A stretch of 64,000 nt of DNA. Origin: a virus. Taxonomy: Duplodnaviria; Caudoviricetes. The first letter of the stretch is position 1, and every line of letters starts with the position of its first letter. The stretch is taken from the IMG/VR virus record IMGVR_UViG_642918914_000001, positions 1 to 64,000 of that record; one strand, written 5' to 3'. The notes under the pieces are model-generated. The model searched no databases, was not told the DNA's origin, and worked only from the letters and a program-made list of their open reading frames with translations. A program made the position numbers and the translations under genes. This document shows positions 6,931-55,566 of the stretch, piece by piece.

Positions 6931-7341
6931 ATGGCAACCTTTATCACCCAGCTTCGCAAGCAACACCCCGGCCTCAGCATGCAAAAGGCGTTCGGTAACA
7001 ACGTGCGCATTTCACGTGGTAGCAAGGTGGCTCTCGTTTCGGTGTTCAGTAATTCGGTTGAGTTCAGCAGTTACAACGGCCGCTTCGGTGATCAAGAGCT
7101 TAAACATCGTGAGCGCGTTCGTGATCCAGAAGCGCTTCGCACCTTGATCACCGAATTCTTCGGTCCGTCGCCTGCGTCGCAAATCAAGCGCCTCAAAGCA
7201 CGCAACGCCAAGATCAAGGACTTGCTGGTCAAGTATCGCGATTGGAATGCCAGCGGTGGCGGTTACACCGGTCGTATCGATCGCCTGCGCCAGCAACTGC
7301 GCACCAACAAAATTCTGCTGCGTGGCCTTCGCGCCAAGTAA
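6931..7341 (+). CDS. Hypothetical basic early protein
   Basis: First gene after the promoter; CTCCCATCGAAACGGAG leader. Confidence 0.75.
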   Translation: MATFITQLRKQHPGLSMQKAFGNNVRISRGSKVALVSVFSNSVEFSSYNGRFGDQELKHRERVRDPEALRTLITEFFGPSPASQIKRLKARNAKIKDLLVKYRDWNASGGGYTGRIDRLRQQLRTNKILLRGLRAK

Positions 7342-7387
7342 GCAAAGCAAACAGTCGTCTATCTCTCCCATCGAAAAGGAGCGTTCC

Positions 7388-7800
7388 ATGTTTATCCCAC
7401 GCGCACAATTCGCAGCTCGCACGTCTGGCCTCTACTTCCAAGGTGCCGATTCGGAAAACGACGAGGTGGTCATCTCGTGCTATCTGCCGGTCCAAGAGGT
7501 TGCAAAGCAATTCGGTCTGGAAGCGCTGGACAACGTCATCGACTACGGGTTCTGCCGGTTGCGTGTCAACGAGCTGTCGTTCGTCGAGTTCGCTACCAGT
7601 CTGCGCAGTCTGCGCCGCACCATTCGCAGCCTGCGTGCGTGGCTCAAGTCCGTGGAATCCACGGCCGAAGAGAACCAGAAGGAATCGCTGTTCAAGGTTG
7701 AGCTGTCGGGCATTCGCAGTCTGCGCCGTCAGCAAAAGTTCGAGCAAAAGGCAGTGCTCGCCGGTCTGCGGCGCACCGCGCTGGGCTTGGGTTTCTGTAA
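7388..7800 (+). CDS. Hypothetical early protein (3' end uncertain)
   Basis: AAGGAG RBS and ATG 7388. The ORF track fuses it to the next gene; it probably ends near TAA 7798 if an indel is present. Confidence 0.55.
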
Positions 7801-7858
7801 TTCTAGCTTCACTGATCCGTGCATCGCCGTCATCTTTCCCATCGAAAAGGAAACCGTC

Positions 7859-8389
7859 ATGAAAACCGCTATCGTTCTGTCCACCGTCGTGGCATCCATC
7901 GCCCTGTATGCAAACACTGGCCACGCGCTGAGCCCAGCCGTTGATCCCGAACCCGCGATCAGCTACTCGCTTCTGGTCTACGGTGCGTCCGCGCACATGG
8001 ACAAGGTCGGCCACATCGACAATCGCACGTTCCGCCCCACGGGCAATCGCAAGCTGAACGCCGTGAACCCGGGTTCTGGGTTTGGAAAGCGGAGCGCGAT
8101 GGCTGGCTGGTCGGTGCCGGTACGTACGAGGACTCGTTCTACAAACAGGGGTTACATGGCATACGGTGGCTATCGCTTCAAGTTCGGCGACGAGAAGGGC
8201 TGGAACGCCAACGTCGCGCTCAAGGCTGGCTACCTGCACGGTTCCAATCGCCATGGTCTGATGGCGCTGCCCACGGTCGGCGTCGGCTACAAGAACGTGA
8301 GCCTGGAGTTCAGCGCGTTCCCGTACCACACCGACGACAAGGGTGGCAAGGGCATCGTGGTGGCAACGTGGCTGCGCTACCAGTTCTAA
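7859..8389 (+). CDS. Outer-membrane beta-barrel protein, PagP-like
   Basis: Signal peptide MKTAIVLSTVVASIALYANTGHA, NAVNPG motif, alternating beta strands, C-terminal LRYQF beta-signal; own RBS. Confidence 0.6.
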   Translation: MKTAIVLSTVVASIALYANTGHALSPAVDPEPAISYSLLVYGASAHMDKVGHIDNRTFRPTGNRKLNAVNPGSGFGKRSAMAGWSVPVRTRTRSTNRGYMAYGGYRFKFGDEKGWNANVALKAGYLHGSNRHGLMALPTVGVGYKNVSLEFSAFPYHTDDKGGKGIVVATWLRYQF

Positions 8390-11844: not shown

Positions 11845-12210
11845 ATGGACAATCAGCCCTCACAAATTTCGGTCGCCGATATGCTGGAAATCGGCATGAC
11901 AGAGGTTCAGCGCAACTTCAACGCCATCATCGGTGGCCTGAAGGAATTCAATCAAAGTGGTCTGGCGGTAGCCGCTACTGCCCGCGCATTGCAGGAACTG
12001 CATGCCTTGGCTGCGCAGCAAAAGCAACTGGAGGCCCAGATCAAGGCACTTCGGAAGGTGTGGGAAGCTACTGAAGATTGGTTGGACTCCCGCGAAAAGC
12101 CAGCCACTCCCACAGAAGTGGCGGACGGTGCCTTGGCAACGGTGGACGACTCGATCGCTGAGTTCAACAACCATCTCATGATGGTTCTGGCGCAGGCCGC
12201 CAAGGAGTAA
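11845..12210 (+). CDS. Coiled-coil hypothetical protein
   Basis: Heptad-rich LQELHALAAQQKQLEAQIKAL. Confidence 0.7.
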   Translation: MDNQPSQISVADMLEIGMTEVQRNFNAIIGGLKEFNQSGLAVAATARALQELHALAAQQKQLEAQIKALRKVWEATEDWLDSREKPATPTEVADGALATVDDSIAEFNNHLMMVLAQAAKE

Positions 12211-12214
12211 GACC

Positions 12215-12694
12215 GTGGATCACTTCCAGAAAGAGCTACAGCAGATCCGCGACGGTATCGACGAGCGCATCCGCGAATTCGGCCACACGTTCGTAGGCGT
12301 CTTTCCCACGGCGGAGGACCCCACCCCGGTCACGCCCTTCATGTACACGGTGGGACTCACCGCGAAGGGCTGGCCCGAGATCATCGCCACCGGCAATCTG
12401 TCGGTGCGTGCGATGCAGTGGTGTCTTGGGGCAGTTGTCAGCACCATGGAGAAGGAGGGCGCTGACTTCCGTACCGGCATCCGCCACGATCTGTTCAACT
12501 TCAAGTGCGAGCTGCGCTGGGTCACAAGCGAAGAGCTGCGCATGGAATACGCGGTGCACGCTACCCGCTTGTATGGCGACAACGTGCGAGTGCTGCAACT
12601 GGTCTGGACCGACGATCAGAACCGATTACCGGACGAACCGGGCTATGACGCTCAGCGCTTCATTCAGCAGGTGTTCCCTGCCACTGACCAATGA
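12215..12694 (+). CDS. DUF4262-family protein
   Basis: PFMYTVGL...GWPEII...VLQLVWTD...LPDEPGY motifs. Confidence 0.75.
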   Translation: MDHFQKELQQIRDGIDERIREFGHTFVGVFPTAEDPTPVTPFMYTVGLTAKGWPEIIATGNLSVRAMQWCLGAVVSTMEKEGADFRTGIRHDLFNFKCELRWVTSEELRMEYAVHATRLYGDNVRVLQLVWTDDQNRLPDEPGYDAQRFIQQVFPATDQ

Positions 12695-12876
12695 CCCCCG
12701 AACACGCAACTGACACCCTCGTGCGCATGGCCCGAGGTAGCAAGGCAACCATGGGCATCATGGTGATGCTCTACACTCTCGGCAAGGATCAATGGCGACG
12801 AGAGAAGCGAGCTGCTCGGCTCACAGCCAATCGCCGTAAGAAGCAGCGTCGCGCACGCACAGGACGTCGATCATGA
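12691..12876 (+). CDS. Small Arg-rich protein
   Basis: ATGA overlaps on both sides. Confidence 0.55.
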   Translation: MTPEHATDTLVRMARGSKATMGIMVMLYTLGKDQWRREKRAARLTANRRKKQRRARTGRRS

Positions 12877-13103
12877 ACGCGCTCCAATACGTCACCGACA
12901 TGAGCGCCGTGTGCGGCGGCTTCTTCTCTATGGAGAAGCCCTGCACCAAGGCCAGTGGATCGGAGATCCGTCGCTGGATCCAACAGTCGTCTATCGTTGT
13001 GAACGGGCAAGTGGTGCGCGACCCGAAGGCTGTTATCGCACTGCCTGTCACCAGTTTCGTGCTGTTTCCCAAGTCACCCAAGAAGCGCATCACCATTCTA
13101 TGA
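12873..13103 (+). CDS. Stand-alone S4-like RNA-binding domain protein
   Basis: SGSEIRRWIQQSSIVVNGQVVRDP matches the S4 motif SxSEARRLIxxGxVxVNG. Confidence 0.7.
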   Translation: MNALQYVTDMSAVCGGFFSMEKPCTKASGSEIRRWIQQSSIVVNGQVVRDPKAVIALPVTSFVLFPKSPKKRITIL

Positions 13104-13210
13104 TGGATCTCGACGACCTGACCTTTGTTCCTGGCTTTGTGCTGGGCATTGTTATCGGACTAGCCGCTGGTCTCCTGCTTTGCGGCTACCACGCAATCAC
13201 TACCTTCTAA
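13100..13210 (+). CDS. Small membrane peptide
   Basis: MMDLDDLTFVPGFVLGIVIGLAAGLLLCGY; ATGA overlap. Confidence 0.5.
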   Translation: MMDLDDLTFVPGFVLGIVIGLAAGLLLCGYHAITTF

Positions 13211-13236
13211 CCCAAAGACACCCAACGAGGTTACTC

Positions 13237-14217
13237 ATGGACGGCATCATTCGCAAACTCACCCGTGGCGCATACGACATCCAGCAACTGCGCATCGCAA
13301 CCGGACTGCGCGTCGTTGCACAATTCCGCGATCGGTTCAACGTGCCGGAACCCGTGACCGACGTGCAACTGGATCATGCAACGACGGGCGAAGCGCGTGC
13401 GGCACTCGACGCCGAGGCCAAGGAAAAGGCGGACAAGCAACGCGACGCCCTGCTCAAGCAGATCCGCATTCACTTCGACCGCGTGACCGATGGCATCGTT
13501 GCCACCCAACGCCGCAAGACCTATCACTTCGACGACGTGTTCAAGGACGAGACCGACGTGTGGTTCATGGAGAACTACATGGGGATTCTGGACCAGGAAC
13601 AGCAGGCGTTCAAGCGTCTGGAGCGCGCACTTGGCAAGAACGGCTTCTACAATGACTGGCTGGCGAACGTCAAGGGCATCGGCCCGGCGATGGCTGGCGT
13701 TCTCATCTCGGAACTCGATCCGTACCGCGCCAAGTACCCGTCCAGCTTCTGGAAGTACTCGGGGCTGGATGTGGTGACGGTCGTCGATCCCGAAACGCAT
13801 GACATCGTCCGCACCGAGGGGCGCCGCAACTTCAAGCATCACCTCGTGGAGTCCACATACACGGACCGCGATGGCAAGGAACAGACGAAGATGGGGCTGT
13901 CGTACAACCCATGGCTCAAGACCAAGCTGCTCGCGGTGATGGCACCCTCCTTCCTCAAGTGCTCGCACCCGGTCTACAGCAAGATGTACTACGACTACAA
14001 GCTCCGCCAGTTGAATCGGCCCGAGCTCAAGGACAACAAGGCGGTGAAGGCCATCGCCCACAAGCGCGCACTGCGCTACGTGGCCAAGATGTTCCTGCGC
14101 GATCTGCATACGGCATGGCGCACGTATGAGGGGCTGGAAGTCTATCCGTCGTACGAGGAAGCGAAGCTGGGCATGACCCACGGTCGCGATCCTTCGGCTG
14201 AAGCCGCACGTCAGTAA
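13237..14217 (+). CDS. tasA: TIGR-associated Tas protein, TasA-like (coiled-coil plus Nop/IS110-related RNA-binding domain, no RuvC or HNH)
   Basis: GAGG RBS and ATG 13237. VKGIGPAMAGVLISEL...SSFWKYSGL...YNPWLKT...YYDYK...AHKRALRYVAKMFL is the IS110 C-terminal/Nop-like pattern; no N-terminal DEDD RuvC motif; directly followed by a 36-nt dual-repeat array. Confidence 0.88.
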   Translation: MDGIIRKLTRGAYDIQQLRIATGLRVVAQFRDRFNVPEPVTDVQLDHATTGEARAALDAEAKEKADKQRDALLKQIRIHFDRVTDGIVATQRRKTYHFDDVFKDETDVWFMENYMGILDQEQQAFKRLERALGKNGFYNDWLANVKGIGPAMAGVLISELDPYRAKYPSSFWKYSGLDVVTVVDPETHDIVRTEGRRNFKHHLVESTYTDRDGKEQTKMGLSYNPWLKTKLLAVMAPSFLKCSHPVYSKMYYDYKLRQLNRPELKDNKAVKAIAHKRALRYVAKMFLRDLHTAWRTYEGLEVYPSYEEAKLGMTHGRDPSAEAARQ

Positions 14218-14225
14218 AGCAAGAA

Positions 14226-14245
14226 CAGGGACCTTCGGGTCCCTG
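14226..14245 (+). promoter_or_regulatory. C(UUCG)G hairpin at the 5' end of the array (no U-tract)
   Basis: CAGGGACC-TTCG-GGTCCCTG followed by CCAAAC, 12 nt before the first repeat. Confidence 0.7.
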
Positions 14246-14257
14246 CCAAACAGGAGA

Positions 14258-15590
14258 AGTCATCCTACGATAAATAGCGCACCAGAAGCGCAAAGACTCC
14301 CCTATAGCGGTGGTGTACCCTGTGAACTAAGACAACCATTGCTAGGTAGTGAGTCAATATCATACAGTCATCCTATAGATGAGAGCGCATCATTGTGCTA
14401 AAGACACCCATACTCAGTGAGTGATCGAGCCACAGAAGTCCTCCTTGGCAGGAGAGTGATCCTATGGAACAAAGAAACCCGAGATCATAGAGTGTGCCTC
14501 TTGAAATGTAGTCACCCTATAAAAGCGAGCGACCTCAGAGATAAAGTCACCCCAATAGTTGTAGTGTGCCCGCAGTAGCAAGTCACCCAAGTCCGATCCT
14601 AGCGACTCTTCTACGAAAGCAACCCATCGCAGCTTAGTGTTCCTTCCAATGGCAGTCATCCAGTATCATAGAGTGCACCCGTCCGCCGTGAGCCCGCCGT
14701 AATAGCGCAGTGCATACCTAAAAAGCTAAGTCACCCTGAGAGATGCTAGTGAGCCACGAACCGGAGACACCCGATATAGTACAGCGCTCCACGAATATGG
14801 AGGCATCCAACCAAGAGTAGTGACCCAAACGCAAGATTCATCCCAGAGACACAAGTGCTCCATGTGCGCGAAAGTAACCCCAAAGAAGGGAGAGCACCTG
14901 ACTGACCTAGTCACCCCTTAGTACACAGTGTTCCTTTGTAGTCAAGTCCTCCAGAAACAAGGAGTGAGTCCGTAAACTGCTAGACATCCATTAACGCAAA
15001 GTGTGTCATCATGGGGGGAGTCAGCCACAGAGCAGTAGCGAGCCTACAAAACTAAGACACCCAGAAAAGTGAAGCGCGCCGCATCAGGCTAGTCACCCTT
15101 AGAATTGAAGTGCACCTAGGATACGAAGACGCCCCATATCAGCTAGTGCGCCACCCGAATGAAGGCATCCTCCCTTGTTTAGCGGCCCTATGACGTAAGG
15201 CACCCTCATCATGCCAGCGGCCTTGTAAGATGAGACACCCGTTTCACATGAGTGAACCGACCGGTATAAGGCAACCTCGGTATGCCAGTGACCCGAGAAC
15301 CAAAGACAACCGATCCCCTCTAGTGCGTCCACCCGAAATAGAACACCCGAGCCACGAGCGCTCCGTTCAAGATTAGTCACCCGTTATTGCCAAGAGCACC
15401 AGAACAATCCAGCCTCCCGTTACACAGGAGTGAGCCCTCATGTCAGAGTCAGCCATAAAGGCATAGTGACCCGCGTTCTCAAGTCCCCCAATCTACATGA
15501 GTGACCCTTAGTTCCAAGACCTCCTTAACTCTTGAGTGTGCCTGTTGCAGTGAGCAATCCCATTGTATGCAGCGTGCCCTGACGTCTCCT
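14258..15590 (+). repeat. TIGR-type tandem interspaced guide RNA array, 37 units of ~36 nt
   Basis: Repeat 1 (AGNCACCC-like) starts at 14258, 14294, 14330, 14366, 14402 ... 15517, 15553 and alternates with repeat 2 (AGYGNNCC-like); each is followed by a unique ~10-nt spacer, e.g. AGTCATCC-TACGATAAAT-AGCGCACC-AGAAGCGCAA. Non-coding and more A-rich than the flanks. Confidence 0.9.
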
Positions 15591-15642
15591 CTCGAAAGCA
15601 AGCTACGCAGCCTTCACATCTAACCAGAACCTGGAGCAGTAA

Positions 15643-16605
15643 ATGACTGTTGAATACCTCATCCCTCGTTCCCTTACGTACGTGGAACGCGACTGCCAAC
15701 CGCTGGGACTGGCACGTGCGCTCAAAGCGCTGTCTCATGAATTCGATCCGCCAACAGCGCGTATCGCCGACGAGAATGCGAGTCGGCTTGCCGCAGAGCT
15801 TGGCTTCTTTGAGATGAAGGAGCCTACGCCGTCTGCGCGACTCGACTGCATCCGTTTGATGCGCGAGCGCGTGGCTGTCTATCTCAAGAAGCGCTTCGAG
15901 CATCTGATGCCTGAGCCCATGTGCGCCACTTACGACTGGGCAGCGGACATGGAACTCGTACTGATGCGGTCTTACAAGCCTGAGATTGGCCGCTGCACAC
16001 CCATGGCGCGCACGGTCAACATGAGCGTGTTGGAAGTGGAAGAGAAGGAAGCCTTGGCGGCGCCTCGTCCTCCGCTTGTGTCGGGCATCAACTCCACGTT
16101 TCAGCCTCTGACGAAGAAGGCATATACACGCTCGCAGTACGCACACGGCGACTGTCGTGTAGCCGAGGTGTTGAATGACGTGCGTGCCTGCATTCCGATC
16201 CCTGACATTCAGTTCTTCATCGTCGTGCGCACAGTGCAGACTGCCGACGTTCTTGCCTGGGCGTGCACCCAGTTCATGCCAGATGAGTTGGTACTCACTC
16301 TTACGGGCACGACCAGCTCCGACGAGCGGCAGCGTTCCATCGAGGCATTCAACAATGGGCACTGCAAAGTGCTGATCGCCACGTTCCACATGCTTCAGGG
16401 CTTTCGCTTTGCAAAGCGGCCAGCGATAGCGGTAAGCTCCACGGCTCCCTGCTACGAAGAAGACGCAAATCAGATCCTCGGCCGGCTGAACGCAGATACG
16501 CCGGTGGTCCACACCAACTTGGCAGTGTGGCGCATCCACACCAACTTGGCAGTGTGGCGCATCCAGGACCACGAAGACCGCCAACACTGTGCACAGGAGG
16601 ACTGA
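15643..16605 (+). CDS. Protein with SF2 helicase C-terminal-like domain
   Basis: LTGTTSSDERQRSIEAFNNGHCKVLIAT...QGF...QILGRL; no clear Walker A or DExH half. Confidence 0.6.
   Translation: MTVEYLIPRSLTYVERDCQPLGLARALKALSHEFDPPTARIADENASRLAAELGFFEMKEPTPSARLDCIRLMRERVAVYLKKRFEHLMPEPMCATYDWAADMELVLMRSYKPEIGRCTPMARTVNMSVLEVEEKEALAAPRPPLVSGINSTFQPLTKKAYTRSQYAHGDCRVAEVLNDVRACIPIPDIQFFIVVRTVQTADVLAWACTQFMPDELVLTLTGTTSSDERQRSIEAFNNGHCKVLIATFHMLQGFRFAKRPAIAVSSTAPCYEEDANQILGRLNADTPVVHTNLAVWRIHTNLAVWRIQDHEDRQHCAQED
16508..16565 (+). repeat. 27-bp in-frame tandem duplication
   Basis: TCCACACCAACTTGGCAGTGTGGCGCA x2, giving HTNLAVWRI twice. Confidence 0.9.
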
Positions 16606-16607
16606 TC

Positions 16608-16814
16608 ATGGCGCTGACCTACGAAGAACTTCTGCACATGAAGCATACGTTGGACACAACGCGTGACGACGATCGCGGCCATCATTACCTGCCGGAGAAG
16701 TACAGCCAGGACCTGAGCAAGTGCATCAACCTTGTGAACCGCGAGCTGCGCGCCCTGAAAAAGGTGAAGGATTTACAGGCCATAGGTCGCGCAAAACTGG
16801 GTGTTGCGAAATGA
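16608..16814 (+). CDS. Hypothetical protein
   Basis: AGGAGG RBS. Confidence 0.6.
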   Translation: MALTYEELLHMKHTLDTTRDDDRGHHYLPEKYSQDLSKCINLVNRELRALKKVKDLQAIGRAKLGVAK

Positions 16815-16862
16815 CAACAGTGGCGGGTGCCCCTTGTGGGCGCCCCCGCTTTGTGGCATAAT
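16801..16862 (+). promoter_or_regulatory. Early promoter module
   Basis: TGTTGCGAAATGACAACA (inverted version of the palindrome), then TTGTGG-17 nt-CATAAT with TG extension. Confidence 0.7.
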
Positions 16863-16914
16863 GAACGCACCGCAGTAGTACACGTTCCACTTCTCCCATC
16901 GAAACGGAGGCCGT

Positions 16915-17271
16915 ATGCAATTCCCTTACCTGAACACCTGCGCACGTGTGATGATTTGCGATTTCATCATGGGCTGTCGAGACTACGAAAAGCTGTCTCA
17001 AATCCAGCGTGAGCAGGTAGACCGCGCCGCGCAGGTGGCAGTCGAAAATCTGTCGCAGTTCTTCCCTGCTTCTCGCATCAAATCCACGGAGCGGTGGCTG
17101 CGCAAGCAATACGATGAGCAGCCCGAAGACCTCATCGCCATGTCTATCGGTGACGACATCACAAGCGAAGGCGACATGGGAATCACGTACGAACACGACG
17201 ACTTCATCGTGACTGTCCCGCGTCGCCATGACGAGGTCTTGTCCGAACTCGGCGAAATCGTGGGGGCCTGA
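16915..17271 (+). CDS. Hypothetical early protein
   Basis: CTCCCATCGAAACGGAG leader. Confidence 0.7.
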   Translation: MQFPYLNTCARVMICDFIMGCRDYEKLSQIQREQVDRAAQVAVENLSQFFPASRIKSTERWLRKQYDEQPEDLIAMSIGDDITSEGDMGITYEHDDFIVTVPRRHDEVLSELGEIVGA

Positions 17272-23842: not shown

Positions 23843-24274
23843 ATGAAACGCTCCGCGGTCATACCGCTTGTGTTGTTGGGCACGCTCACTGTTGCAGCGT
23901 GTAGCGATCAAGTGGATGACGATGTAGGACAAGAAGTGAAGCAACAGTCGTACAACTCGCTGGCTGATTGTCAGAAAGACTGGGGCAGTGACGGTCGCAA
24001 TTGCACTGCGGTCGCTCCCAATTCGGTACACAGCACGCCGTTCGTGTACATGGGGCCGCGCTACTACTATGATCGCGGTTATGGTCAGCCGGTGGCCATC
24101 AACAGCGATGGCACCACGCGCATCGTCCCGGGTTCGTTCATGGCGCGCTCCGCTCCCAGCGTGGCGACCACCACGGCCAGCGTTGGACGCACAGCCAGTG
24201 TGGCGTCCATGGGCAGCGTTGCTCGTGGAGGCTTCGGCGCCACGGCTGCCGGTCACGCTTCGGCGGGAGGCTGA
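23843..24274 (+). CDS. ygiB: DUF1190/YgiB-family lipoprotein
   Basis: Lipobox TVAAC, YNSLADC...C, C-terminal VARGGFGATA; adjacent to a YgiC-like gene. Confidence 0.8.
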   Translation: MKRSAVIPLVLLGTLTVAACSDQVDDDVGQEVKQQSYNSLADCQKDWGSDGRNCTAVAPNSVHSTPFVYMGPRYYYDRGYGQPVAINSDGTTRIVPGSFMARSAPSVATTTASVGRTASVASMGSVARGGFGATAAGHASAGG

Positions 24275-24275
24275 T

Positions 24276-25397
24276 ATGCGTCGCATCAAACAAGTGGAGC
24301 GGCCGGATCGTGCCGCGAAGTTGGAAAGCATCGGTCTGTCGTTCCATTCGTGGGATGACTACTGGAACGAGGGCGTGGCCTACGAATTCAGCAGCGCGCA
24401 GATCGACGAGTTGGAACGCGCGACCAACGAGCTGCACGACATGTGCTCCAAGGCGATCGGGCATGTGTTGTGCTACAATAGACTGGGCGAGTTGGGGATC
24501 CCTGAAGCTTTCTGGAAGCCCATCGAGCGTTCGTTCAAGAATTGCGACTGGTCTTTGTACGGTCGGTTCGACTTGGTGTACGACGGCGTGCGTCCTCCCA
24601 AGATGCTGGAGTACAACGCGGACACGCCCACGTCGCTACTCGAATCGGCGGTCGCTCAGTGGTATTGGCTGCAGGACGTGCATCCGCAACGCGATCAGTT
24701 CAACTCGATTCACGAGCGACTGGTTGCGCGTTGGAAGCAGGTGCCATACGTCAGTGCCCAGACCATCCACTTCGCGAGCCTCAAGGACAACGAAGAGGAT
24801 TGGGTATGCACGCACTACCTGATGGACACAGCGGTGCAGGCAGGCTACAAAGTGAAGCACGTGTGGGTGGAAGACCTTGGCTGGCGCGAAGGCAGCAAGT
24901 ATTTCGTGGACTTGGAAGATGCACCTATTCACGTGTTGTTCAAGCTGTATCCGTGGGAATGGATGATGCGGGAAGAGTTTAGTGCGCATCTGCTGGATAC
25001 TCGCACGCACCTGATCGAGCCCATGTGGAAGAGCGTGTTGTCCAACAAGGGGCTGCTCGCTATTCTGTGGGAGCTGTATCCGGACCACCCGAACCTGCTG
25101 CCTGCATACCTTGGCGACCCGCGCACGCTCACATCTTACGCTAAGAAGCCGCTGTTCTCGCGCGAAGGTGCGAACATCGAACTGTGGGACAACGATCGCG
25201 TGGTGGCCGCTGACCGCGGTCCGTACGGTGCGGAAGGCCACGTCTATCAGCAGTTGGCGCCGTTGCCCAACTTCGATGGGAACTATCCAGTCATCGGTTC
25301 GTGGATAGTGGGCAGCGAGGCTGCTGGCATCTGTGTGCGCGAAGACAACCAGTTGATCACCACGAACCTCAGTCATTTCGTACCTCACTATTTCTGA
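24276..25397 (+). CDS. ygiC: Glutathionylspermidine synthase-family ATP-grasp ligase (YgiC-like)
   Basis: YW-E, LYGRFD, MLEYNADTPTSLLES, FKLYPWEWM, SNKGLL, KPLFSREGAN. Confidence 0.92.
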   Translation: MRRIKQVERPDRAAKLESIGLSFHSWDDYWNEGVAYEFSSAQIDELERATNELHDMCSKAIGHVLCYNRLGELGIPEAFWKPIERSFKNCDWSLYGRFDLVYDGVRPPKMLEYNADTPTSLLESAVAQWYWLQDVHPQRDQFNSIHERLVARWKQVPYVSAQTIHFASLKDNEEDWVCTHYLMDTAVQAGYKVKHVWVEDLGWREGSKYFVDLEDAPIHVLFKLYPWEWMMREEFSAHLLDTRTHLIEPMWKSVLSNKGLLAILWELYPDHPNLLPAYLGDPRTLTSYAKKPLFSREGANIELWDNDRVVAADRGPYGAEGHVYQQLAPLPNFDGNYPVIGSWIVGSEAAGICVREDNQLITTNLSHFVPHYF

Positions 25398-31906: not shown

Positions 31907-32524
31907 ATGAATCTGTTCTGGCTGGATTTGGATCCGCGCATCAGTGCGCGTCATGCGTGCGATCAGCATAACAACAAGATGCTGATCGAGCACGCACAGA
32001 TGATTTGCACGGTGCTGCACGCGCTTGGCTATCGCCGCCTGCCAATGAAGTCGTTGGGCATGGGCAAGGAACTGCTTCAGTGGGTGTACGAGGACTTCGC
32101 CAACTTCGCGTATCTGCACGACCTGTCGTTCTACTACTTCCAGGAGTACTGTGCACGACATGGTAAAGACCAGCATCATGCGTGGCGCAAGATTGTGCTG
32201 GCGGTCGATCGTTGTGGTGGCATGCGTGCAATCCGTCGTGAGTTCCGTCGTCAGGGGCGTGACGCCAGCCGCGATGTTCGGTATTACGTAAATACAGAGC
32301 ACAACGCCCCGCTCTGGGCGTGTATCACAGTTCCTCCGCTGTACATGCCTGACGAGTTCAAGTACCGTCTTGTTGGCGACACGCAGCGTCGGTTGCGTGC
32401 TGTTGTGCGTTCGTATCGTCGCTTCTACACACTGTCCAAGTCAAGATTCGCTCGTTACTATCATTCTGCCCCGCCGCCGTATATGCGTGGCGCCTGCAAA
32501 ACGAAAACCAAGAACCGCTCATGA
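31907..32524 (+). CDS. Pyrimidine-dimer DNA glycosylase-like protein
   Basis: MNLFWLD-DP...A...CDQH-NKMLIEHAQMICT...YRRFY. Confidence 0.7.
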   Translation: MNLFWLDLDPRISARHACDQHNNKMLIEHAQMICTVLHALGYRRLPMKSLGMGKELLQWVYEDFANFAYLHDLSFYYFQEYCARHGKDQHHAWRKIVLAVDRCGGMRAIRREFRRQGRDASRDVRYYVNTEHNAPLWACITVPPLYMPDEFKYRLVGDTQRRLRAVVRSYRRFYTLSKSRFARYYHSAPPPYMRGACKTKTKNRS

Positions 32525-34398
32525 AAGTCACTGCTCAGAACCTGAACAAAGCGAAGAAGCTGTACAAGCAGGCGCGGGTCGCCTACTACGAAAAGGCCGA
32601 GATCATGACCGACGCTGAGTTCGACGCGTTGGAAGACAGCATCCGCCGCCTGGATCCCAAGTGGGACGAGCTCCAGAAGACTGGGACCAAGGTCGAGGTC
32701 AAGAACAAGAAGCAGGAAGTCAAGCTGCTTGAGTTCATGCCTTCCAAGAACAAGATCTACCCTGAGCACGTGGCAAAGTATGCTGCCAAGCACGCGTCAG
32801 TGGAAGTGTGGAATGTGAGCCACAAGCTGGACGGCACGAGTCTACAGCTCGCATATCGCGGCGGGCGCCCCTGGAAGTTGATCACGCGTGGTGACGGTGC
32901 ACTGGGCAAGGACATCTCGTTCTTCCTGCCCCATCTGGTGAAGATCGGCATGATCCCTGATCACATCAAGACCGATGCGTTGGTCGTCGTCTTCCGCTGT
33001 GAGGGCATCATGCCGGTGGCCGTCTTCGAGAAGAAGTGGGCGGGCAAGTACGACAACGCTCGTCAGCTGGCGAACGGCGTGTTCAACCGCCAGGACATGC
33101 ATCCGGCGCTGGCCGATGTGCATATGGTGGTGCTCAGTGTCTACGGCATGAAGCAGGGCGAAGGCATCATGTACGCCAAGCGACAGGGGTTCCATGTGGT
33201 GCCTACGCGAATGCTCAAGGGACGATTGGACGCTGAAGTGCTGACGCGCCTCCTGAACAAGGAGCGCGAGGCCTCCATCTACGAGATGGATGGTTTGATC
33301 CTGGTGCCGTCCCCGCGCATCATGTCGTACACGTCGCCGGATCGTCCGAAGGACATCACTGCGTTCAAGTTCAACGACGAAGAGAACGCAGCGGAAGTTC
33401 CCGTGGAAAGCGTCGTCTGGCAGAAGACTCGCTTGCATCGTTGGCAGCCCAAGATCACCATCAAGCCCACGTTCATGGATGGCGTGATGGTGACCAACGT
33501 CACGGCGCACAACCCTGCTTGGATGAAGGAACGCGGCATCGGGCCGGGTGCGATCGTCAAGGTGTTGCGCAGCGGCGGAGTCATCCCCAAGATTGTGGGC
33601 GTCGTCAAGAAGGGCAAGTTCCAGCCGCCGCCGGGTCCGTACGTGGAGGACGGTCGCCTGTTCCGCATGACCGAGGGCGACGCATCCACCGAAGTGCGAG
33701 GCATTCACCATTTTATGACGACGTTGGGTATCGAGCTGCTCGCGTCCAAGACCATCACCAAACTGTACGAGGAGGGCTTCACCACGGTGTACGACTACAT
33801 CGATCTGGCTATCAACGGCGATGAAGGTCGGCTGCAAACCGCAGGCATCGGCGTCAAGATGAGCCAGAAGATCCAGGCAGAATTGGAGCGTGTGCTGGGC
33901 TCCACCATCAACCTGCGCTTGCTCATGGTTGCCTCTGGCTGCTTCCGCGATGGCATTGGCCGTCGTAAGCTGGAAGCGTTGGAAGCGGCTGGCATCAGCA
34001 TGCGCTTCTTGCTGAAGTCCAGTGACTTCGCGCTGCGCGGTGAACTGTCCAAGGTCAAGGGCTTCTCCGACATCACCATAGAGGCCGTGATCGACGGAGT
34101 GAACGCATTCCGCAAGTGGTTCGACGAGGTCCGTGAACTCCTGGAGGTCGACGGGTCGCTGCCCAAGGCCAAGAAGGTGGTGACCGGCAAGCTCACGGGC
34201 CAGTTCGTGTCGTGGACCGGCTATCGCAACAAGGACGAAGAGCAGAAGGTAGAAGCGTGGGGCGGTACCATCGTGCCGTTTGGTAGCAAGACCACCATTC
34301 TTCTGTACAGCCCCTCGGGCAAGACCAGTTCCAAAGTCGAAAAGGCAGGATCCAAGGCTATGACGTGGGTCCAACTCACCAGCAAGTTCAAGATCTAA
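32521..34398 (+). CDS. ligA: NAD+-dependent DNA ligase
   Basis: YY...MTDAEFDALE, HKLDG adenylation motif, TRGDG, EMDGLI, RSGGVIPKI, C-terminal BRCT-like domain. Confidence 0.93.
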   Translation: MKVTAQNLNKAKKLYKQARVAYYEKAEIMTDAEFDALEDSIRRLDPKWDELQKTGTKVEVKNKKQEVKLLEFMPSKNKIYPEHVAKYAAKHASVEVWNVSHKLDGTSLQLAYRGGRPWKLITRGDGALGKDISFFLPHLVKIGMIPDHIKTDALVVVFRCEGIMPVAVFEKKWAGKYDNARQLANGVFNRQDMHPALADVHMVVLSVYGMKQGEGIMYAKRQGFHVVPTRMLKGRLDAEVLTRLLNKEREASIYEMDGLILVPSPRIMSYTSPDRPKDITAFKFNDEENAAEVPVESVVWQKTRLHRWQPKITIKPTFMDGVMVTNVTAHNPAWMKERGIGPGAIVKVLRSGGVIPKIVGVVKKGKFQPPPGPYVEDGRLFRMTEGDASTEVRGIHHFMTTLGIELLASKTITKLYEEGFTTVYDYIDLAINGDEGRLQTAGIGVKMSQKIQAELERVLGSTINLRLLMVASGCFRDGIGRRKLEALEAAGISMRFLLKSSDFALRGELSKVKGFSDITIEAVIDGVNAFRKWFDEVRELLEVDGSLPKAKKVVTGKLTGQFVSWTGYRNKDEEQKVEAWGGTIVPFGSKTTILLYSPSGKTSSKVEKAGSKAMTWVQLTSKFKI

Positions 34399-40503: not shown

Positions 40504-40871
40504 TGTCCATGTCTGACAAGATGGAGCCCAAGCTCCCTGAATCATGGGCCGAATTGTTGGAGCTCGTACAGAAGTTGGGCGCCCCCGCAACCCCGCCCAT
40601 CATCGGACCGCGCACACAGCCGTTCCCATTCGTCAGCCCGCAACCCTACGTCGGGCCAAACACCCAGATCATCGGCACCTGCAGTCTGTGTGGTGGGCCA
40701 GTGACCTTGCCCATGATCTGGGGTAGTGTGGTTCCCCCAACTCCTACGTGTGCTGCGTGTGGCGCACTTCCTGCCAAAGGCTTCGGTCCCGTGATCGACA
40801 TGCGACCGGGTCCCGCGATCAAATACACCACGACTAGCAATAGCGTGGATCCCACCAAGGATCAGCAATGA
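40500..40871 (+). CDS. Pro-rich protein with CxxC pairs
   Basis: GTCSLCGG...TCAACG; GGAGG RBS. Confidence 0.6.
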   Translation: MMSMSDKMEPKLPESWAELLELVQKLGAPATPPIIGPRTQPFPFVSPQPYVGPNTQIIGTCSLCGGPVTLPMIWGSVVPPTPTCAACGALPAKGFGPVIDMRPGPAIKYTTTSNSVDPTKDQQ

Positions 40872-42121
40872 ACGTTGTCAAAGACGAAGACATGCGCGTG
40901 CCGTTGCGCAACTGGGCATCGACCCTCGAACAAGCGGCGCTGGAACAAGCCAAGAACATCACCCGACTGCCCTTCATCCATCCGCACGGCGTCGCGTTGA
41001 TGCCGGACGCGCACGCAGGCATCGGCAGCACGGTAGGATCGGTGATCGCTACGCAAGGTGCCATCATTCCGGCGGCGGTGGGCGTGGACATCGGCTGCGG
41101 CATGGTGGCGGTTCGTACCAGTCTCAAGGCCAGTCAGTTGCCGGACAACCTGCGCGATGTTCGCTTGCAGATCGAACGCGACATCCCGCTGGGTCCTGGT
41201 GGCAAGCACCGTGCTGACTCGTTCGACAAGCTGCGTCAAAGCGTGTGGGCGTACCTGGACCCGACAAGCGACCGCAACAACATCGACGCTCGTGTGCGAT
41301 TGGGCCTGATGTCTGCATTCGTCGACAATCGACGCGGCACGAAGGACCCGCTCGGCGACCTGAGCGCCAAAGCGTGGGAGCAGCTTGGCACGCTGGGTTC
41401 CGGCAACCACTTCATTGAACTGTGCGTGGACCAGTCGCAAGACGTGTGGATCATGCTGCATAGCGGTTCGCGCGGTGTGGGCAACATCATCGGCCGTCAC
41501 TACATCGAGCGTGCGCAGAAGGAGTGCGGCATGTGGCACAGCAGCCTGCCGCACAACGATCTCGCGTTCTTCCCTGAGGACACTCCGGGCTTCAATCACT
41601 ACGTCCTGTCCATGCTGTGGGCGCAGGACTTCGCTCGGCAGAATCGTGCGGTGATGTTGCAGATCGTGATCCAAGCGCTGCGTCGTCATCTGCCGGCCTT
41701 CGAGCTGACGGAAGAGGCGGTGAACTGCCACCACAACTATTGTGAGCAGGAGAACCACTTCGGGCGCAACGTGTGGGTCACGCGCAAGGGTGCGGTTCGT
41801 GCACGTGAAGACGATCTGGGGATCATTCCGGGATCCATGGGTACGAAGTCGTACATCGTCAAGGGCAAGGGCAATCCGCATTCGTACTGCTCGTGCAGTC
41901 ACGGGGCAGGACGCCGTATGTCGCGCACCGAGGCCGTCAAGCGATTCACCGTCGAAGACCTCGTGCAGCAGACGCAGGGTGTTGAATGCCCGAAGACCAA
42001 GGAAGTGCTGGATGAAATCCCGGCCGCGTACAAGGACATCGATCAGGTGATGCTTGACCAAAGCGATCTGGTGGAAGTCGTTCATACGCTGAAGGCCGTT
42101 CTCAACGTGAAAGGATACTGA
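40868..42121 (+). CDS. rtcB: RtcB RNA 2',3'-cyclic phosphate/5'-OH ligase
   Basis: MPDAH, VGVDIGCG, QLGTLGSGNHFIE, HSGSRG, HHNY, IPGSMG, SHGAGR, DEIPAAYK. Confidence 0.96.
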   Translation: MNVVKDEDMRVPLRNWASTLEQAALEQAKNITRLPFIHPHGVALMPDAHAGIGSTVGSVIATQGAIIPAAVGVDIGCGMVAVRTSLKASQLPDNLRDVRLQIERDIPLGPGGKHRADSFDKLRQSVWAYLDPTSDRNNIDARVRLGLMSAFVDNRRGTKDPLGDLSAKAWEQLGTLGSGNHFIELCVDQSQDVWIMLHSGSRGVGNIIGRHYIERAQKECGMWHSSLPHNDLAFFPEDTPGFNHYVLSMLWAQDFARQNRAVMLQIVIQALRRHLPAFELTEEAVNCHHNYCEQENHFGRNVWVTRKGAVRAREDDLGIIPGSMGTKSYIVKGKGNPHSYCSCSHGAGRRMSRTEAVKRFTVEDLVQQTQGVECPKTKEVLDEIPAAYKDIDQVMLDQSDLVEVVHTLKAVLNVKGY

Positions 42122-54147: not shown

Positions 54148-55566
54148 ATGCAAGAGCAAATCAACGACTTCAACTTCGCTGCTGATACTGACAGCTACAA
54201 GTACAGTCACGGTCCACAAGTCCCGAAGAGTCTGGCCTACGTTTCCTCATACGGGGAAGCACGGTCCGACGCCGTGTTCCGGGGCGCGCTGTTTAGCGGC
54301 ATGCAAGTCCGAGTCAAGGACATGCTGGAAAAGCCGCTGACGATGGCGGATGTGGACTTCGCGTACGAGATGGCGATGGCGCATTGCGGGACTTTCCCAC
54401 TTGAGATGATGAAGAAGATCGTCACTCAATACGGCGGGCTGCCTCCGGTTCGGATTCAGGCGCTGCCCGAAGGGCTTGTTGTTCCCAATCGCACTGCCCT
54501 GTGGCAGATCGCCAACTTGGACCCGAGCATGCCGACGCTGCCGCAATTCATGGAGGACCAAATCCTCCGTGACGTGTGGTACATGTCGACTGTGGCTACG
54601 CTGAGCTGGCACATCAAGCAAGACATTCTCGCATTTCTCAACCGCACCTGTGACAACCCCGAAGAGGAGATCGTGTTCCGCCTCCACGACTTCGGGGCAC
54701 GCGGCGCTAGCTCTCGTGAGACAGCGGCGCACGGTGGTCTGGCTCACCTCATCAACTTCATGGGGACCGACACCGTGCTCGCGCTGTATGCTGCACGTCG
54801 TTATTACGGCGAGAAGGTGGCTGGATTCAGCATTCCTGCCATGGAGCACTTCACCGTGACGGCGTGGGGCCGTGAAAACGAGGCGCAGGCGTACGCGAAC
54901 ATGGTTGACACCTTCGGTGGTGAAGGCCGTATCTACGCATGTGTGTCGGATGCCTACGACATCTTCAACGCAGTGGACAACATCTGGGGCCAACAGCTCA
55001 AGGACCGGGTTCTGGCTAAAGGTGGGCGACTCGTCGTTCGTCCTGATTCCGGGGACCCGACATCCGTTGTTCTCTACTGCGTCAAGTCGCTGGCACGGTC
55101 GTTCGGAACGACGACCAACAAGAAGGGGTTCCAAGTGCTGCACCCTGCCGTTCGCGTCATCCAAGGTGATGGCGTGAACCGCGAGTCGATCAGGAGCATC
55201 CTGACGGCTCTCGAGATCAACGGATTCTCGGCAGAGAACGTTGCCTTCGGCATGGGTGGCGCCTTGTTGCAAGGCGTGAATCGAGACACCTTGGGTTTTG
55301 CTCAGAAGGCAAGCGCCATCACCTCTGGGCACAGCAGATGGATCGGTATCAGCAAGGAGCCGGTCACGGCCAAGCAGAAGGTTTCGAAGAAGGGGCGACT
55401 GGCAGTTGTGCGTGAAAGCGACAGCTACCTGACGATCCAGGAATCGGAACTGGGTGGCCGCGAGAACCTGCTCCAGGATGTCTTCGACGGACAGTCCCTT
55501 GTGCGAGACATGTCATTCTCCGAAGTTCGGGAGAACGCGAATCGAAGTGTGTTGCCCCGGCTGTAA
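54148..55566 (+). CDS. nadV: Nicotinamide phosphoribosyltransferase
   Basis: DTDSYKYSH, LHDFGARG, GTDT, SIPAMEH, VVRPDSGDP, VIQGDG, FGMGG. Confidence 0.95.
   Translation: MQEQINDFNFAADTDSYKYSHGPQVPKSLAYVSSYGEARSDAVFRGALFSGMQVRVKDMLEKPLTMADVDFAYEMAMAHCGTFPLEMMKKIVTQYGGLPPVRIQALPEGLVVPNRTALWQIANLDPSMPTLPQFMEDQILRDVWYMSTVATLSWHIKQDILAFLNRTCDNPEEEIVFRLHDFGARGASSRETAAHGGLAHLINFMGTDTVLALYAARRYYGEKVAGFSIPAMEHFTVTAWGRENEAQAYANMVDTFGGEGRIYACVSDAYDIFNAVDNIWGQQLKDRVLAKGGRLVVRPDSGDPTSVVLYCVKSLARSFGTTTNKKGFQVLHPAVRVIQGDGVNRESIRSILTALEINGFSAENVAFGMGGALLQGVNRDTLGFAQKASAITSGHSRWIGISKEPVTAKQKVSKKGRLAVVRESDSYLTIQESELGGRENLLQDVFDGQSLVRDMSFSEVRENANRSVLPRL

Follow-up and report, generated by a model that had tools for sequence, protein, structure and literature searches.

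A phage locus that very probably encodes a nuclease-free, dual-repeat TIGR-Tas system with 37 bipartite guides

Introduction

Between two plus-strand open reading frames (ORFs) of phage record IMGVR_UViG_642918914_000001 lies a region (14258-15590) in which 8-nucleotide (nt) repeats alternate with variable segments of about 10 nt, and it raises the question of what kind of system such an array belongs to and what it does for a phage. The sequence-only reading of this region proposed that it holds about 37 bipartite guides of about 20 nt. We analyzed it within a window of 64,000 nt (positions 1 to 64,000 of the record, to which the coordinates refer unless another sequence is named); the genome of this jumbo phage was assembled as a single contig (231,255 bp, 58.0% G+C), and it contains a single array of this grammar. 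We conclude that the locus is very probably a dual-repeat TIGR-Tas system of the nuclease-free TasA type with 37 bipartite guides, because its anatomy fits the published definition and the adjacent gene encodes a Tas protein without a nuclease domain. According to the published description of these systems (PMC12045711, Faure 2025), dual-repeat TIGR arrays have two alternating repeats of 8 to 12 nt, spacers of 9 to 12 nt and 36-nt guide RNAs (tigRNAs) that run from the middle of one edge repeat to the middle of the next, each repeat starts with a box D and ends with a box C, and a gene for a Nop-domain Tas protein is adjacent.

Anatomy of the array

The region is strongly periodic. Base identity at lags of 18 and 36 nt was 0.365 and 0.355, compared with 0.256 ± 0.012 in 1000 shuffles of 14258-15590 (z 9.0 and 8.1), and the autocorrelation peaks at lags 18, 36, 54 and 72 (0.365, 0.355, 0.321 and 0.334) stood above the 0.21 to 0.29 found at other lags. 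The motif AG-N4-CC was counted 63 times within these coordinates versus 7.4 ± 2.7 times in the shuffles (maximum, 17), its density being 47 per kb in the array and 3 per kb elsewhere in the window, and a chain parse yielded 74 repeats of 8 nt at 14258-15578, about 18 nt apart. Chance periodicity or a protein-coding repeat might be suspected from the shortness of the repeats, which is all that speaks for it; it is refuted by the departure from the shuffles (z of about 9), by the ORFs within the array, which reach at most 93 amino acids (aa) and never span it, and by the recurrence of the same grammar beside tas homologs in 134 of the 160 related loci described below, and we give it next to no weight.

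Two repeat types alternate strictly along the array. The odd-numbered (C-type) repeats read AG[T/A]CA[C/T]CC (A1 in 37 of 37, G2 in 36, C4 in 32, A5 in 28, and C7 and C8 in all 37), and the even-numbered (G-type) repeats read AG[T/C]G..CC (A1 in 35 of 37, G2 in 37, T or C at position 3 in 35, G4 in 36, positions 5 and 6 free, C7 in 31 and C8 in 34). The sequence-only reading had held the two ends of the repeats to be nearly invariant, and this was borne out: the leading AG, present in 71 of the 74 repeats, is box D, and the trailing CC is box C. Its use of position 4 to tell the types apart also stands, with C in 32 of 37 against G in 36 of 37.

The segments after odd repeats measure 10 nt in 33 cases, 12 nt in two, 11 nt in one and 9 nt in one; after even repeats there are 22 of 10 nt, ten of 9 nt and five of 11 nt (the last one nominal). 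The earlier description of mostly 10-nt spacers with a 12-nt case after 14581 was correct, and the 8-nt variant that it listed was not seen, the actual range being 9 to 12 nt. All 74 segments differ, with zero duplicates, as had been claimed, and Tandem Repeats Finder reported nothing within the array, in keeping with the prediction that such repeats escape tandem-repeat finders.

A Tas protein without a nuclease domain

The array and the tas gene (13237-14217, plus strand) lie on the same strand, with tas upstream. Sequence and fold matches identify the product, 326 aa long, as a Tas protein of the TasA type, with a Nop domain and a coiled coil and no nuclease. The ORF itself opens at a TTG at 13180 (345 aa); because all 21 homologs start at the position of the ATG at 13237, that ATG is most likely the true start. 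In a sequence search of the PDB the best match was the TasR chain 9mty_A (E 7.6e-11), and the TasH chain 21kl_A was also found (E 6.8e-4). An AlphaFold2 model built from a 22-sequence alignment (mean predicted local distance difference test score, 77) shows three long N-terminal helices (residues 15 to 151), a helix-hairpin-helix region, a beta insertion and a helical C-terminal part. When this model was compared with the PDB using Foldseek, the top 10 of 500 matches were all TasH or TasR chains (probability 1.00), and the next was the IS621 bridge-RNA recombinase. Neither a nuclease fold in the model nor a Pfam nuclease match (HNH, RuvC) was found for the protein; Pfam gave sub-threshold Transposase_20 and HHH only, and PHROGs places the protein in phrog_4285, labeled "transposase" (E 1.6e-81).

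Near the C terminus, Tyr325 (codon 14152-14154) and His334 (codon 14179-14181, both in the numbering of the 345-aa ORF) form a likely pre-tigRNA processing dyad. Tyr325 is aligned to Y289 of SpTasH (HMMER, ungapped), His334 lies two residues off H296 inside a common KLG..H.G motif, and neither residue varies in any of the 22 aligned homologs. In SpTasH, Y289 and H296 are described as the catalytic residues, on a C-terminal loop, that cut its own pre-tigRNA (PMC13421893). The alignment of the dyad with SpTasH and its invariance make it likely that the phage protein, too, cuts its own pre-tigRNA.

Related loci and their arrays

Of 5,535 candidates, 522 were relatives of the Tas protein (E ≤ 0.001); the nearest are 72 to 73% identical and are encoded on contigs of up to 254 kb. 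In the viral-contig scan the single Tas protein found no relative as a query and the alignment did. The set of 160 related loci was drawn half from metagenomes (the 80 best of 234 confirmed loci) and half from viral contigs (the 80 best of 90). In an unbiased gapped-motif scan for 18-nt chains, the motif that came out best was AG-N4-CC or AG-N5-CA for most of the 160 loci, always on the tas strand, and arrays of at least 8 repeats with the AG....CC grammar were parsed in 134 of them. Together with the array of the window these gave 109 distinct arrays.

Position 9 is A in at least 70% of the repeats in 96 of the 109 arrays, so that their box C is CCA and their spacers are 9 nt long; A9 falls below 50% in five, namely that of the window and those of loci L001, L002, L052 and L158. 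L001 and L002 encode the two closest fetched relatives of the Tas protein (61% and 53% identity). The variable segments here are 10 rather than 9 nt long because box C lacks the A. The suggestion that repeat boxes and spacer length define a variant subtype holds in part: AG....CC boxes are the norm of the clade (134 of 160 loci), and there is a narrow subclade with CC and 10-nt segments (5 of 109 arrays). With 74 repeats the array of the window is the fourth longest of the 109, of which 18 touch the end of their locus; in L001, where the grammar is equally loose, at least 109 repeats were counted before the array reaches the end of its contig.

In 185,579 species genomes, relatives were present at 11 loci only, all in metagenome-assembled genomes of scattered phyla, and for this reason the clade looks viral. 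A tblastn search of a phage collection with the Tas protein gave one weak match, in a Microcystis phage, and a megablast search of the same collection with 12000-17000 gave none, although the collection may be without close records. None of the six neighboring ORFs of the window had a match in 171 related loci (tblastn, E ≤ 1e-4), and the module therefore appears to be just tas plus array, without a conserved partner gene.

Assigning the edge and the loop repeat

In the TasR structure, as described in PMC12045711, the edge repeat has an extra pair beside the box pair that joins the halves of two different edge repeats. The corresponding covariation was found here for the G-type repeats: in 22 of the 36 cases position 3 is complementary to position 6 of the G-type repeat before it, versus 17.5 ± 1.6 in shuffles (P 0.005), a signal that is modest in the window alone, given that the scan comprised 36 cells, of which 4 were expected beforehand. 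Pairing of positions 3 and 6 within the same G-type repeat occurred in 16 to 17 of 37 cases, and the C-type repeats of the window gave no covariation signal. The same edge-to-next-edge pairing is present in L001 in 44 of 53 cases (shuffles, 38.4 ± 1.6; same repeat, 38; reverse direction, 38), and when 11 informative arrays were pooled, 214 of 261 cases paired, compared with 195 when both positions were taken from one repeat, 194 when the direction was reversed and 182.9 ± 3.2 in shuffles.

Both pairs of the G-type repeat also vary within the family, the 2-7 pair changing from G:C to A:T and the 3-6 pair from C:G to T:A, as seen in the consensus forms AGCGAGCCA, AACGAGTCA and AGTGAACCA, and the other, C-type repeat is A-rich inside, as has been described for loop repeats (PMC12045711). 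On the strength of the edge-to-edge covariation, together with the cassette-shaped differences between related arrays presented below, we assign the role of edge to the G-type repeat and that of loop to the C-type repeat. The looseness of the repeats here and in L001 is what lets covariation alone reveal that each edge half is paired with the one that follows 36 nt downstream, a signal that arrays of uniform repeats cannot give.

The array is made up of a probable truncated edge repeat at 14240-14247 followed by 37 units of 36 nt (spacer A, then a loop repeat, then spacer B, then an edge repeat; 14248-15578, plus strand), the evidence being periodicity, parse, covariation and cassette joints. 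The opening edge, which ends in ..GCC exactly 18 nt before the first loop repeat, is probably truncated at its 5' end, and the first spacer is probably 14248-14257. At the other end, the 10 nt at 15579-15588 are not counted as a spacer because no repeat follows them. The earlier total of about 74 spacers is thereby retained as 37 units, with its boundaries shifted by one spacer at each end. The base directly 5' of the repeats is A at 20 of 37 loop repeats and G or T at 27 of 37 edge repeats; the repeats may extend one weakly conserved base leftward.

Between the tas stop codon and the array, a perfect 8-bp hairpin with a 4-nt loop can be read from the sequence (14227-14246, plus strand); it starts ten bases past the stop and overlaps the putative truncated edge. 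No T-run follows it on the plus strand, and a terminator scan flags it on the minus strand only. It could serve as a processing or stabilizing site at the 5' end of the precursor. Downstream, the last edge repeat is followed by a repeat-free tail of 50 nt (15579-15628, plus strand).

Gain, loss and exchange of whole units

The sequence-only reading had proposed that arrays of related phages be compared for gain, loss and polarity of units. Contigs from three public DNA runs (X1 to X3) were compared with 12800-16200. A 21-kb contig from X1 is about 95% identical (117 mismatches over 12800-15116) and collinear with the first two thirds of the array (14258-15116). At the edge repeat 15109-15116 it has 144 extra nt, or four units, of which a 33-nt part is also present in a second study. 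Farther on it lacks exactly 72 nt, or two units, with a joint from mid-edge 15357 to mid-edge 15429, and between 15578 and 15629 it has 543 nt versus 50 nt in the window. Loose ends of X2 and X3 at 15578/15629 show repeat-like motifs.

The pattern was the same among the relatives. Thirty-nine pairs of arrays sharing at least 10 spacers, which fall into 11 clusters and are not all independent, yielded 119 distinct internal difference blocks. In 78 of these the number of spacers was even on both sides, and 77 of the 78 start with spacer A. All 24 pure insertions or deletions comprise 1, 2, 3, 4 or 6 whole units and start right after an edge repeat, and they are spread over the thirds of the array as 10, 7 and 7. 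These blocks and indels indicate that turnover proceeds by whole cassettes of spacer A, loop and spacer B, joined in edge repeats, at any position; the comparison brought out whole-cassette differences, and there is no CRISPR-like polarity in related arrays. The joints fall inside the edge repeats, the same place as the RNA cut assigned to Tas. A literature search found no analysis of cassette turnover in TIGR arrays, and the acquisition of TIGR guides is stated to be unknown in a 2026 preprint (bioRxiv 10.64898/2026.09.09.750476).

Duplicated spacer A-loop-spacer B units were observed in L001 (3765-5747 of that locus, repeats 24 to 26 and 44 to 46) and L002 (5950-6406, repeats 9 to 10 and 19 to 20), some with one to three changes, in spacer A only; they look as if guide variants arise by duplication and drift. 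In the array of the window, diverged duplicate units were not above the null: the minimum distance between units was 7 of 20 positions, and 4 pairs lay at a distance of at most 9, with 3.5 ± 1.9 expected. Pairs of B spacers with at most 3 mismatches numbered 8 in the window versus 2.9 ± 1.7.

Spacer diversity and composition

The arrays hold 2,940 distinct spacers, and sharing is confined to the 11 clusters that near-identical arrays form. One exact 10-mer is common to the window and L152, which is at chance level; at ≤1 mismatch the spacers of the window have 13 matches versus about 5.5 expected, several of them from non-independent arrays. Between the members of nine pairs of related arrays, differences were counted at 8 of 2,981 sites in retained spacers, at 2 of 2,979 in repeats and at 226 of 26,549 in flanks, where the spacer rate is biased downward by the dropping of spacers with more than 3 differences. 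L066 and L070 have 0 of 471 spacer differences and flanks that are 2.1% apart. Spacers thus vary from lineage to lineage and are kept within a lineage, the pattern that guides with real targets would be expected to show.

The spacers of the window have 43% G+C versus 58% for the genome, and of 101 arrays across the family, 86 have spacers poorer in G+C than their flanks, the mean difference being −6.4 points. The spacers are purine-rich on the transcribed strand, with more A than T in 99 of the 101 arrays and more G than C in 87. Purine-rich RNA paired with pyrimidine-rich DNA is the most stable kind of hybrid. From the purine-richness of the spacers, we infer selection for guides that open DNA without ATP. 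No description of a family-wide purine bias of TIGR spacers was found in the TIGR literature that was accessible.

The bias of composition common to the spacers (purine-rich, with G+C below the flanks) could also be expected of a fixed structural or decoy RNA, or of a DNA array bound by a protein, in which the variable segments would hold no information on targets, and the lack of paired-spacer matches above controls reported below is in line with such an element. In that case identical spacers across distant relatives, the sign that the sequence-only reading had named, might be looked for; they were not seen, the one chance-level 10-mer among 2,940 being the only case. Because spacers are not common to distant relatives, a fixed structural RNA is not favored. 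In addition, no recurring k-mer motif beyond shuffles was found among the 74 spacers of the window, and the family of the neighboring protein has been shown to use such segments as guides. We regard this explanation as very improbable and retain the reading of the segments as guides.

Target search and evidence against the assignment

The geometry of the expected target is based on the 8-nt 3' overhangs and the C-5 rule given in the TIGR papers, from which we deduced that one target strand reads as spacer A plus the reverse complement of spacer B. Because one source passage words the cut side differently, both opposite-strand arrangements were tested, in both registers, with a same-strand control. 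The search covered the phage's own genome, one megaplasmid and four phages; the host chromosome, other strains, prophages and most mobile elements lay outside it.

A number of results weigh against the assignment as a working TIGR-TasA locus, those of the target search among them. In the 231-kb genome of the phage itself no paired-spacer site was found at ≤2 mismatches, and the four sites at 3 mismatches are scattered over the arrangements. The Ralstonia GMI1000 megaplasmid (2,094,509 bp, 66.9% G+C) likewise had no site at ≤2 mismatches; its sites at 3 mismatches numbered 1, 1, 2, 1, 4 and 1 by arrangement (the first two being the expected geometry), and those at 4 mismatches numbered 28 and 28 in the expected geometry versus 20, 27, 33 and 11 in the controls. 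In the Ralstonia phages RSS1, RSM1, RSA1 and RSB1 (97.5 kb) there was no site at ≤3 mismatches. The absence of paired-spacer matches above controls, which had been named as evidence against guides, is thus what was observed within the limited DNA searched, and one source passage words the cut side differently from the geometry that we deduced. The proposal of about 37 bipartite guides of about 20 nt is upheld as to TIGR-Tas membership and the 37-unit register, and its expected match to targets went without support.

The remaining points on this side concern the array. No sigma-70-like promoter was found in 12600-16000. The boxes are AG and CC, unlike the UG and CCA of the solved TasR complex, the repeat-to-repeat spacing ranges from 17 to 20 nt, and the edge repeats are degenerate (C7 in 31 and C8 in 34 of 37, and the extra pair in only 22 of 36 units), so that some units may be poor substrates.

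Such observations might suggest a decaying relic, a TIGR array without working guides whose repeats are drifting apart: its edge repeats are unusually degenerate, with positions 5 and 6 free, 6 of 37 without C7 and 3 of 37 without C8, the spacing varies, and no target was seen in the phage genome, the megaplasmid or the four Ralstonia phages. A relic is at odds with an intact tas ORF and an invariant processing dyad, with loop repeats that keep CC in 37 of 37 and with a contig that at about 95% identity keeps the array collinear over 14258-15116. The covariation between consecutive edge repeats implies selection at the level of the processed unit, and in L001 equally loose repeats make up an array that is longer still (at least 109 repeats). 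We consider a relic improbable, and the nuclease-free TIGR-TasA locus is the reading that we carry forward.

Proposed mechanism and roles

The array would probably be transcribed with tas or just after it, from the plus strand. A TasA dimer would bind the precursor via the two-base boxes AG (box D) and CC (box C) of each repeat, and the C-terminal Tyr/His loop would cut within each G-type (edge) repeat. Each resulting tigRNA is predicted to steer the TasA dimer to a site of about 20 bp, where spacers A and B would each pair with a different strand of the DNA, so that one target strand would read spacer A and then the reverse complement of spacer B. As the protein has no nuclease, its binding to DNA would likely block transcription or replication of genes of the host or of rival elements. 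MbTasA is described as binding DNA and repressing reporters in a guide-dependent manner (bioRxiv 10.64898/2026.09.09.750476). Among the roles that do not involve cleavage, we judge the balance between silencing and the others to be about even.

The same TIGR-TasA machine could instead serve guided recombination or integration by DNA bending, partition, or the recruitment of a nuclease. The discussion in Faure 2025 considers aid to an integrase via a DNA bend of about 180 degrees and ParB-linked TasA loci (PMC12045711). The failure of all six neighboring ORFs to match in 171 related loci argues against a conserved partner gene, and the only tested TasA activity is repression and DNA binding (bioRxiv 10.64898/2026.09.09.750476). 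We hold a non-silencing role to be a minority possibility. Returning to silencing, we offer one tentative proposal, which we think rather unlikely in its full form: guides may be gained, lost and swapped as whole cassettes at any point of the array, new ones entering at tigRNA size by copy-back of processed units or by edge-to-edge recombination and not by a CRISPR-style leader-end integrase, and the 37 purine-rich guides may be a curated set with which TasA opens and silences selected sites in the DNA of the host or of rival elements without ATP.

Comparison with known systems

The locus resembles FpTasA of Flavonifractor plautii, which from the published description (PMC12045711) is likewise a solo Nop-domain Tas with alternating short repeats, dual spacers and a 36-nt unit; in systems of the FpTasA type box D opens and box C closes each repeat, and accessory genes are absent. 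This comparison is based on the published description of dual-repeat TasA and not on the FpTIGR repeat sequences. The AG and CC boxes found here differ from the UG and CCA that TasR arrays are described as having, the variable segments are 10 rather than 9 nt long, degeneracy of the edge repeats is much greater, and there are 37 units, whereas 5 to 15 are most common according to the same account (PMC12045711). SpTasH of Salicola phage CGphi29 (PMC13421893; PDB 9W03/9W04) is also phage-borne, with dual repeats and the C-terminal Tyr/His loop, but it has an N-terminal HNH nuclease, cleaves DNA and uses spacers that total 16 nt; the N terminus of the present protein consists of helices only. TaTasR (PDB 9MTY) shares the Nop fold, the logic of a coiled-coil dimer and the extra pair between different edge repeats, and differs in being archaeal, with a RuvC nuclease and 9-nt spacers. 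MbTasA (bioRxiv 10.64898/2026.09.09.750476) is a nuclease-free TasA with guide-dependent repression of transcription; it was tested alongside stem-loop TasR, and stem-loop Tas proteins are without the Tyr/His loop, whereas here the repeats are dual and the loop is present.

CRISPR arrays also have unique spacers between repeats and are cut into guides, but their repeats are 25 to 36 nt long, in contrast to the 8-nt repeats of two types seen here, and the split guides of the present array are predicted to read both DNA strands. No cas genes were found nearby, a scan of the six neighboring ORFs giving DUF4262, Helicase_C and sub-threshold matches only. CRISPR-Cas was rejected on the basis of the 8-nt repeats, the lack of cas genes in those six ORFs and the lack of leader-end polarity in relatives. 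Box C/D small RNAs (sRNAs) and IS110 bridge RNAs are similar in combining a Nop-domain protein with tandem guides that lie between box C/D-like motifs; unlike them, the present locus has no kink-turn, fibrillarin or recombinase domain. No Rfam match at E ≤ 1 was obtained in 13000-16500, including the curated C/D box RNA models.

Other features of the phage genome

The downstream ORF at 15643-16605, which has the Helicase_C domain match (E 1.6e-6), contains an exact 27-nt tandem repeat of 2.1 copies at 16508-16565. Auxiliary genes recognized with PHROGs encode a PagP-like lipid A acylation protein (7247-8389), a glutathionylspermidine synthase (23988-25397), an NAD-dependent DNA ligase (32521-34398), an RtcB RNA ligase (40868-42121) and a nicotinamide phosphoribosyltransferase (54148-55566); the PagP-like protein had no match in a plasmid collection. 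Three tRNA genes lie outside the window on the minus strand, at 186301-186606 of the phage genome contig (C1): Gly(tcc), Pro(tgg) and one that ARAGORN reports as "tRNA-??? (ac)", with a two-base oddity in its anticodon loop.

Implications for TIGR-Tas systems

TIGR-Tas systems were described in 2025, and their natural targets, role and gain of guides are stated as open questions in the literature (PMC12045711; bioRxiv 10.64898/2026.09.09.750476). The kind is thus already published, and it was catalogued in thousands in 2026, with 20,096 tas loci and 6,685 arrays according to the published catalogue; the present locus adds another member. Most known TIGR loci are on metagenomic contigs without a known host. 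The value of this locus lies in the length of its array, in the loose repeats that expose edge-to-edge pairing and in the cassette-wise, non-polar turnover that becomes visible together with its relatives. The comparison of related arrays provides a first picture of turnover in the family, in which whole cassettes are exchanged at joints in the edge repeats, without polarity, while the spacers that are retained stay conserved.

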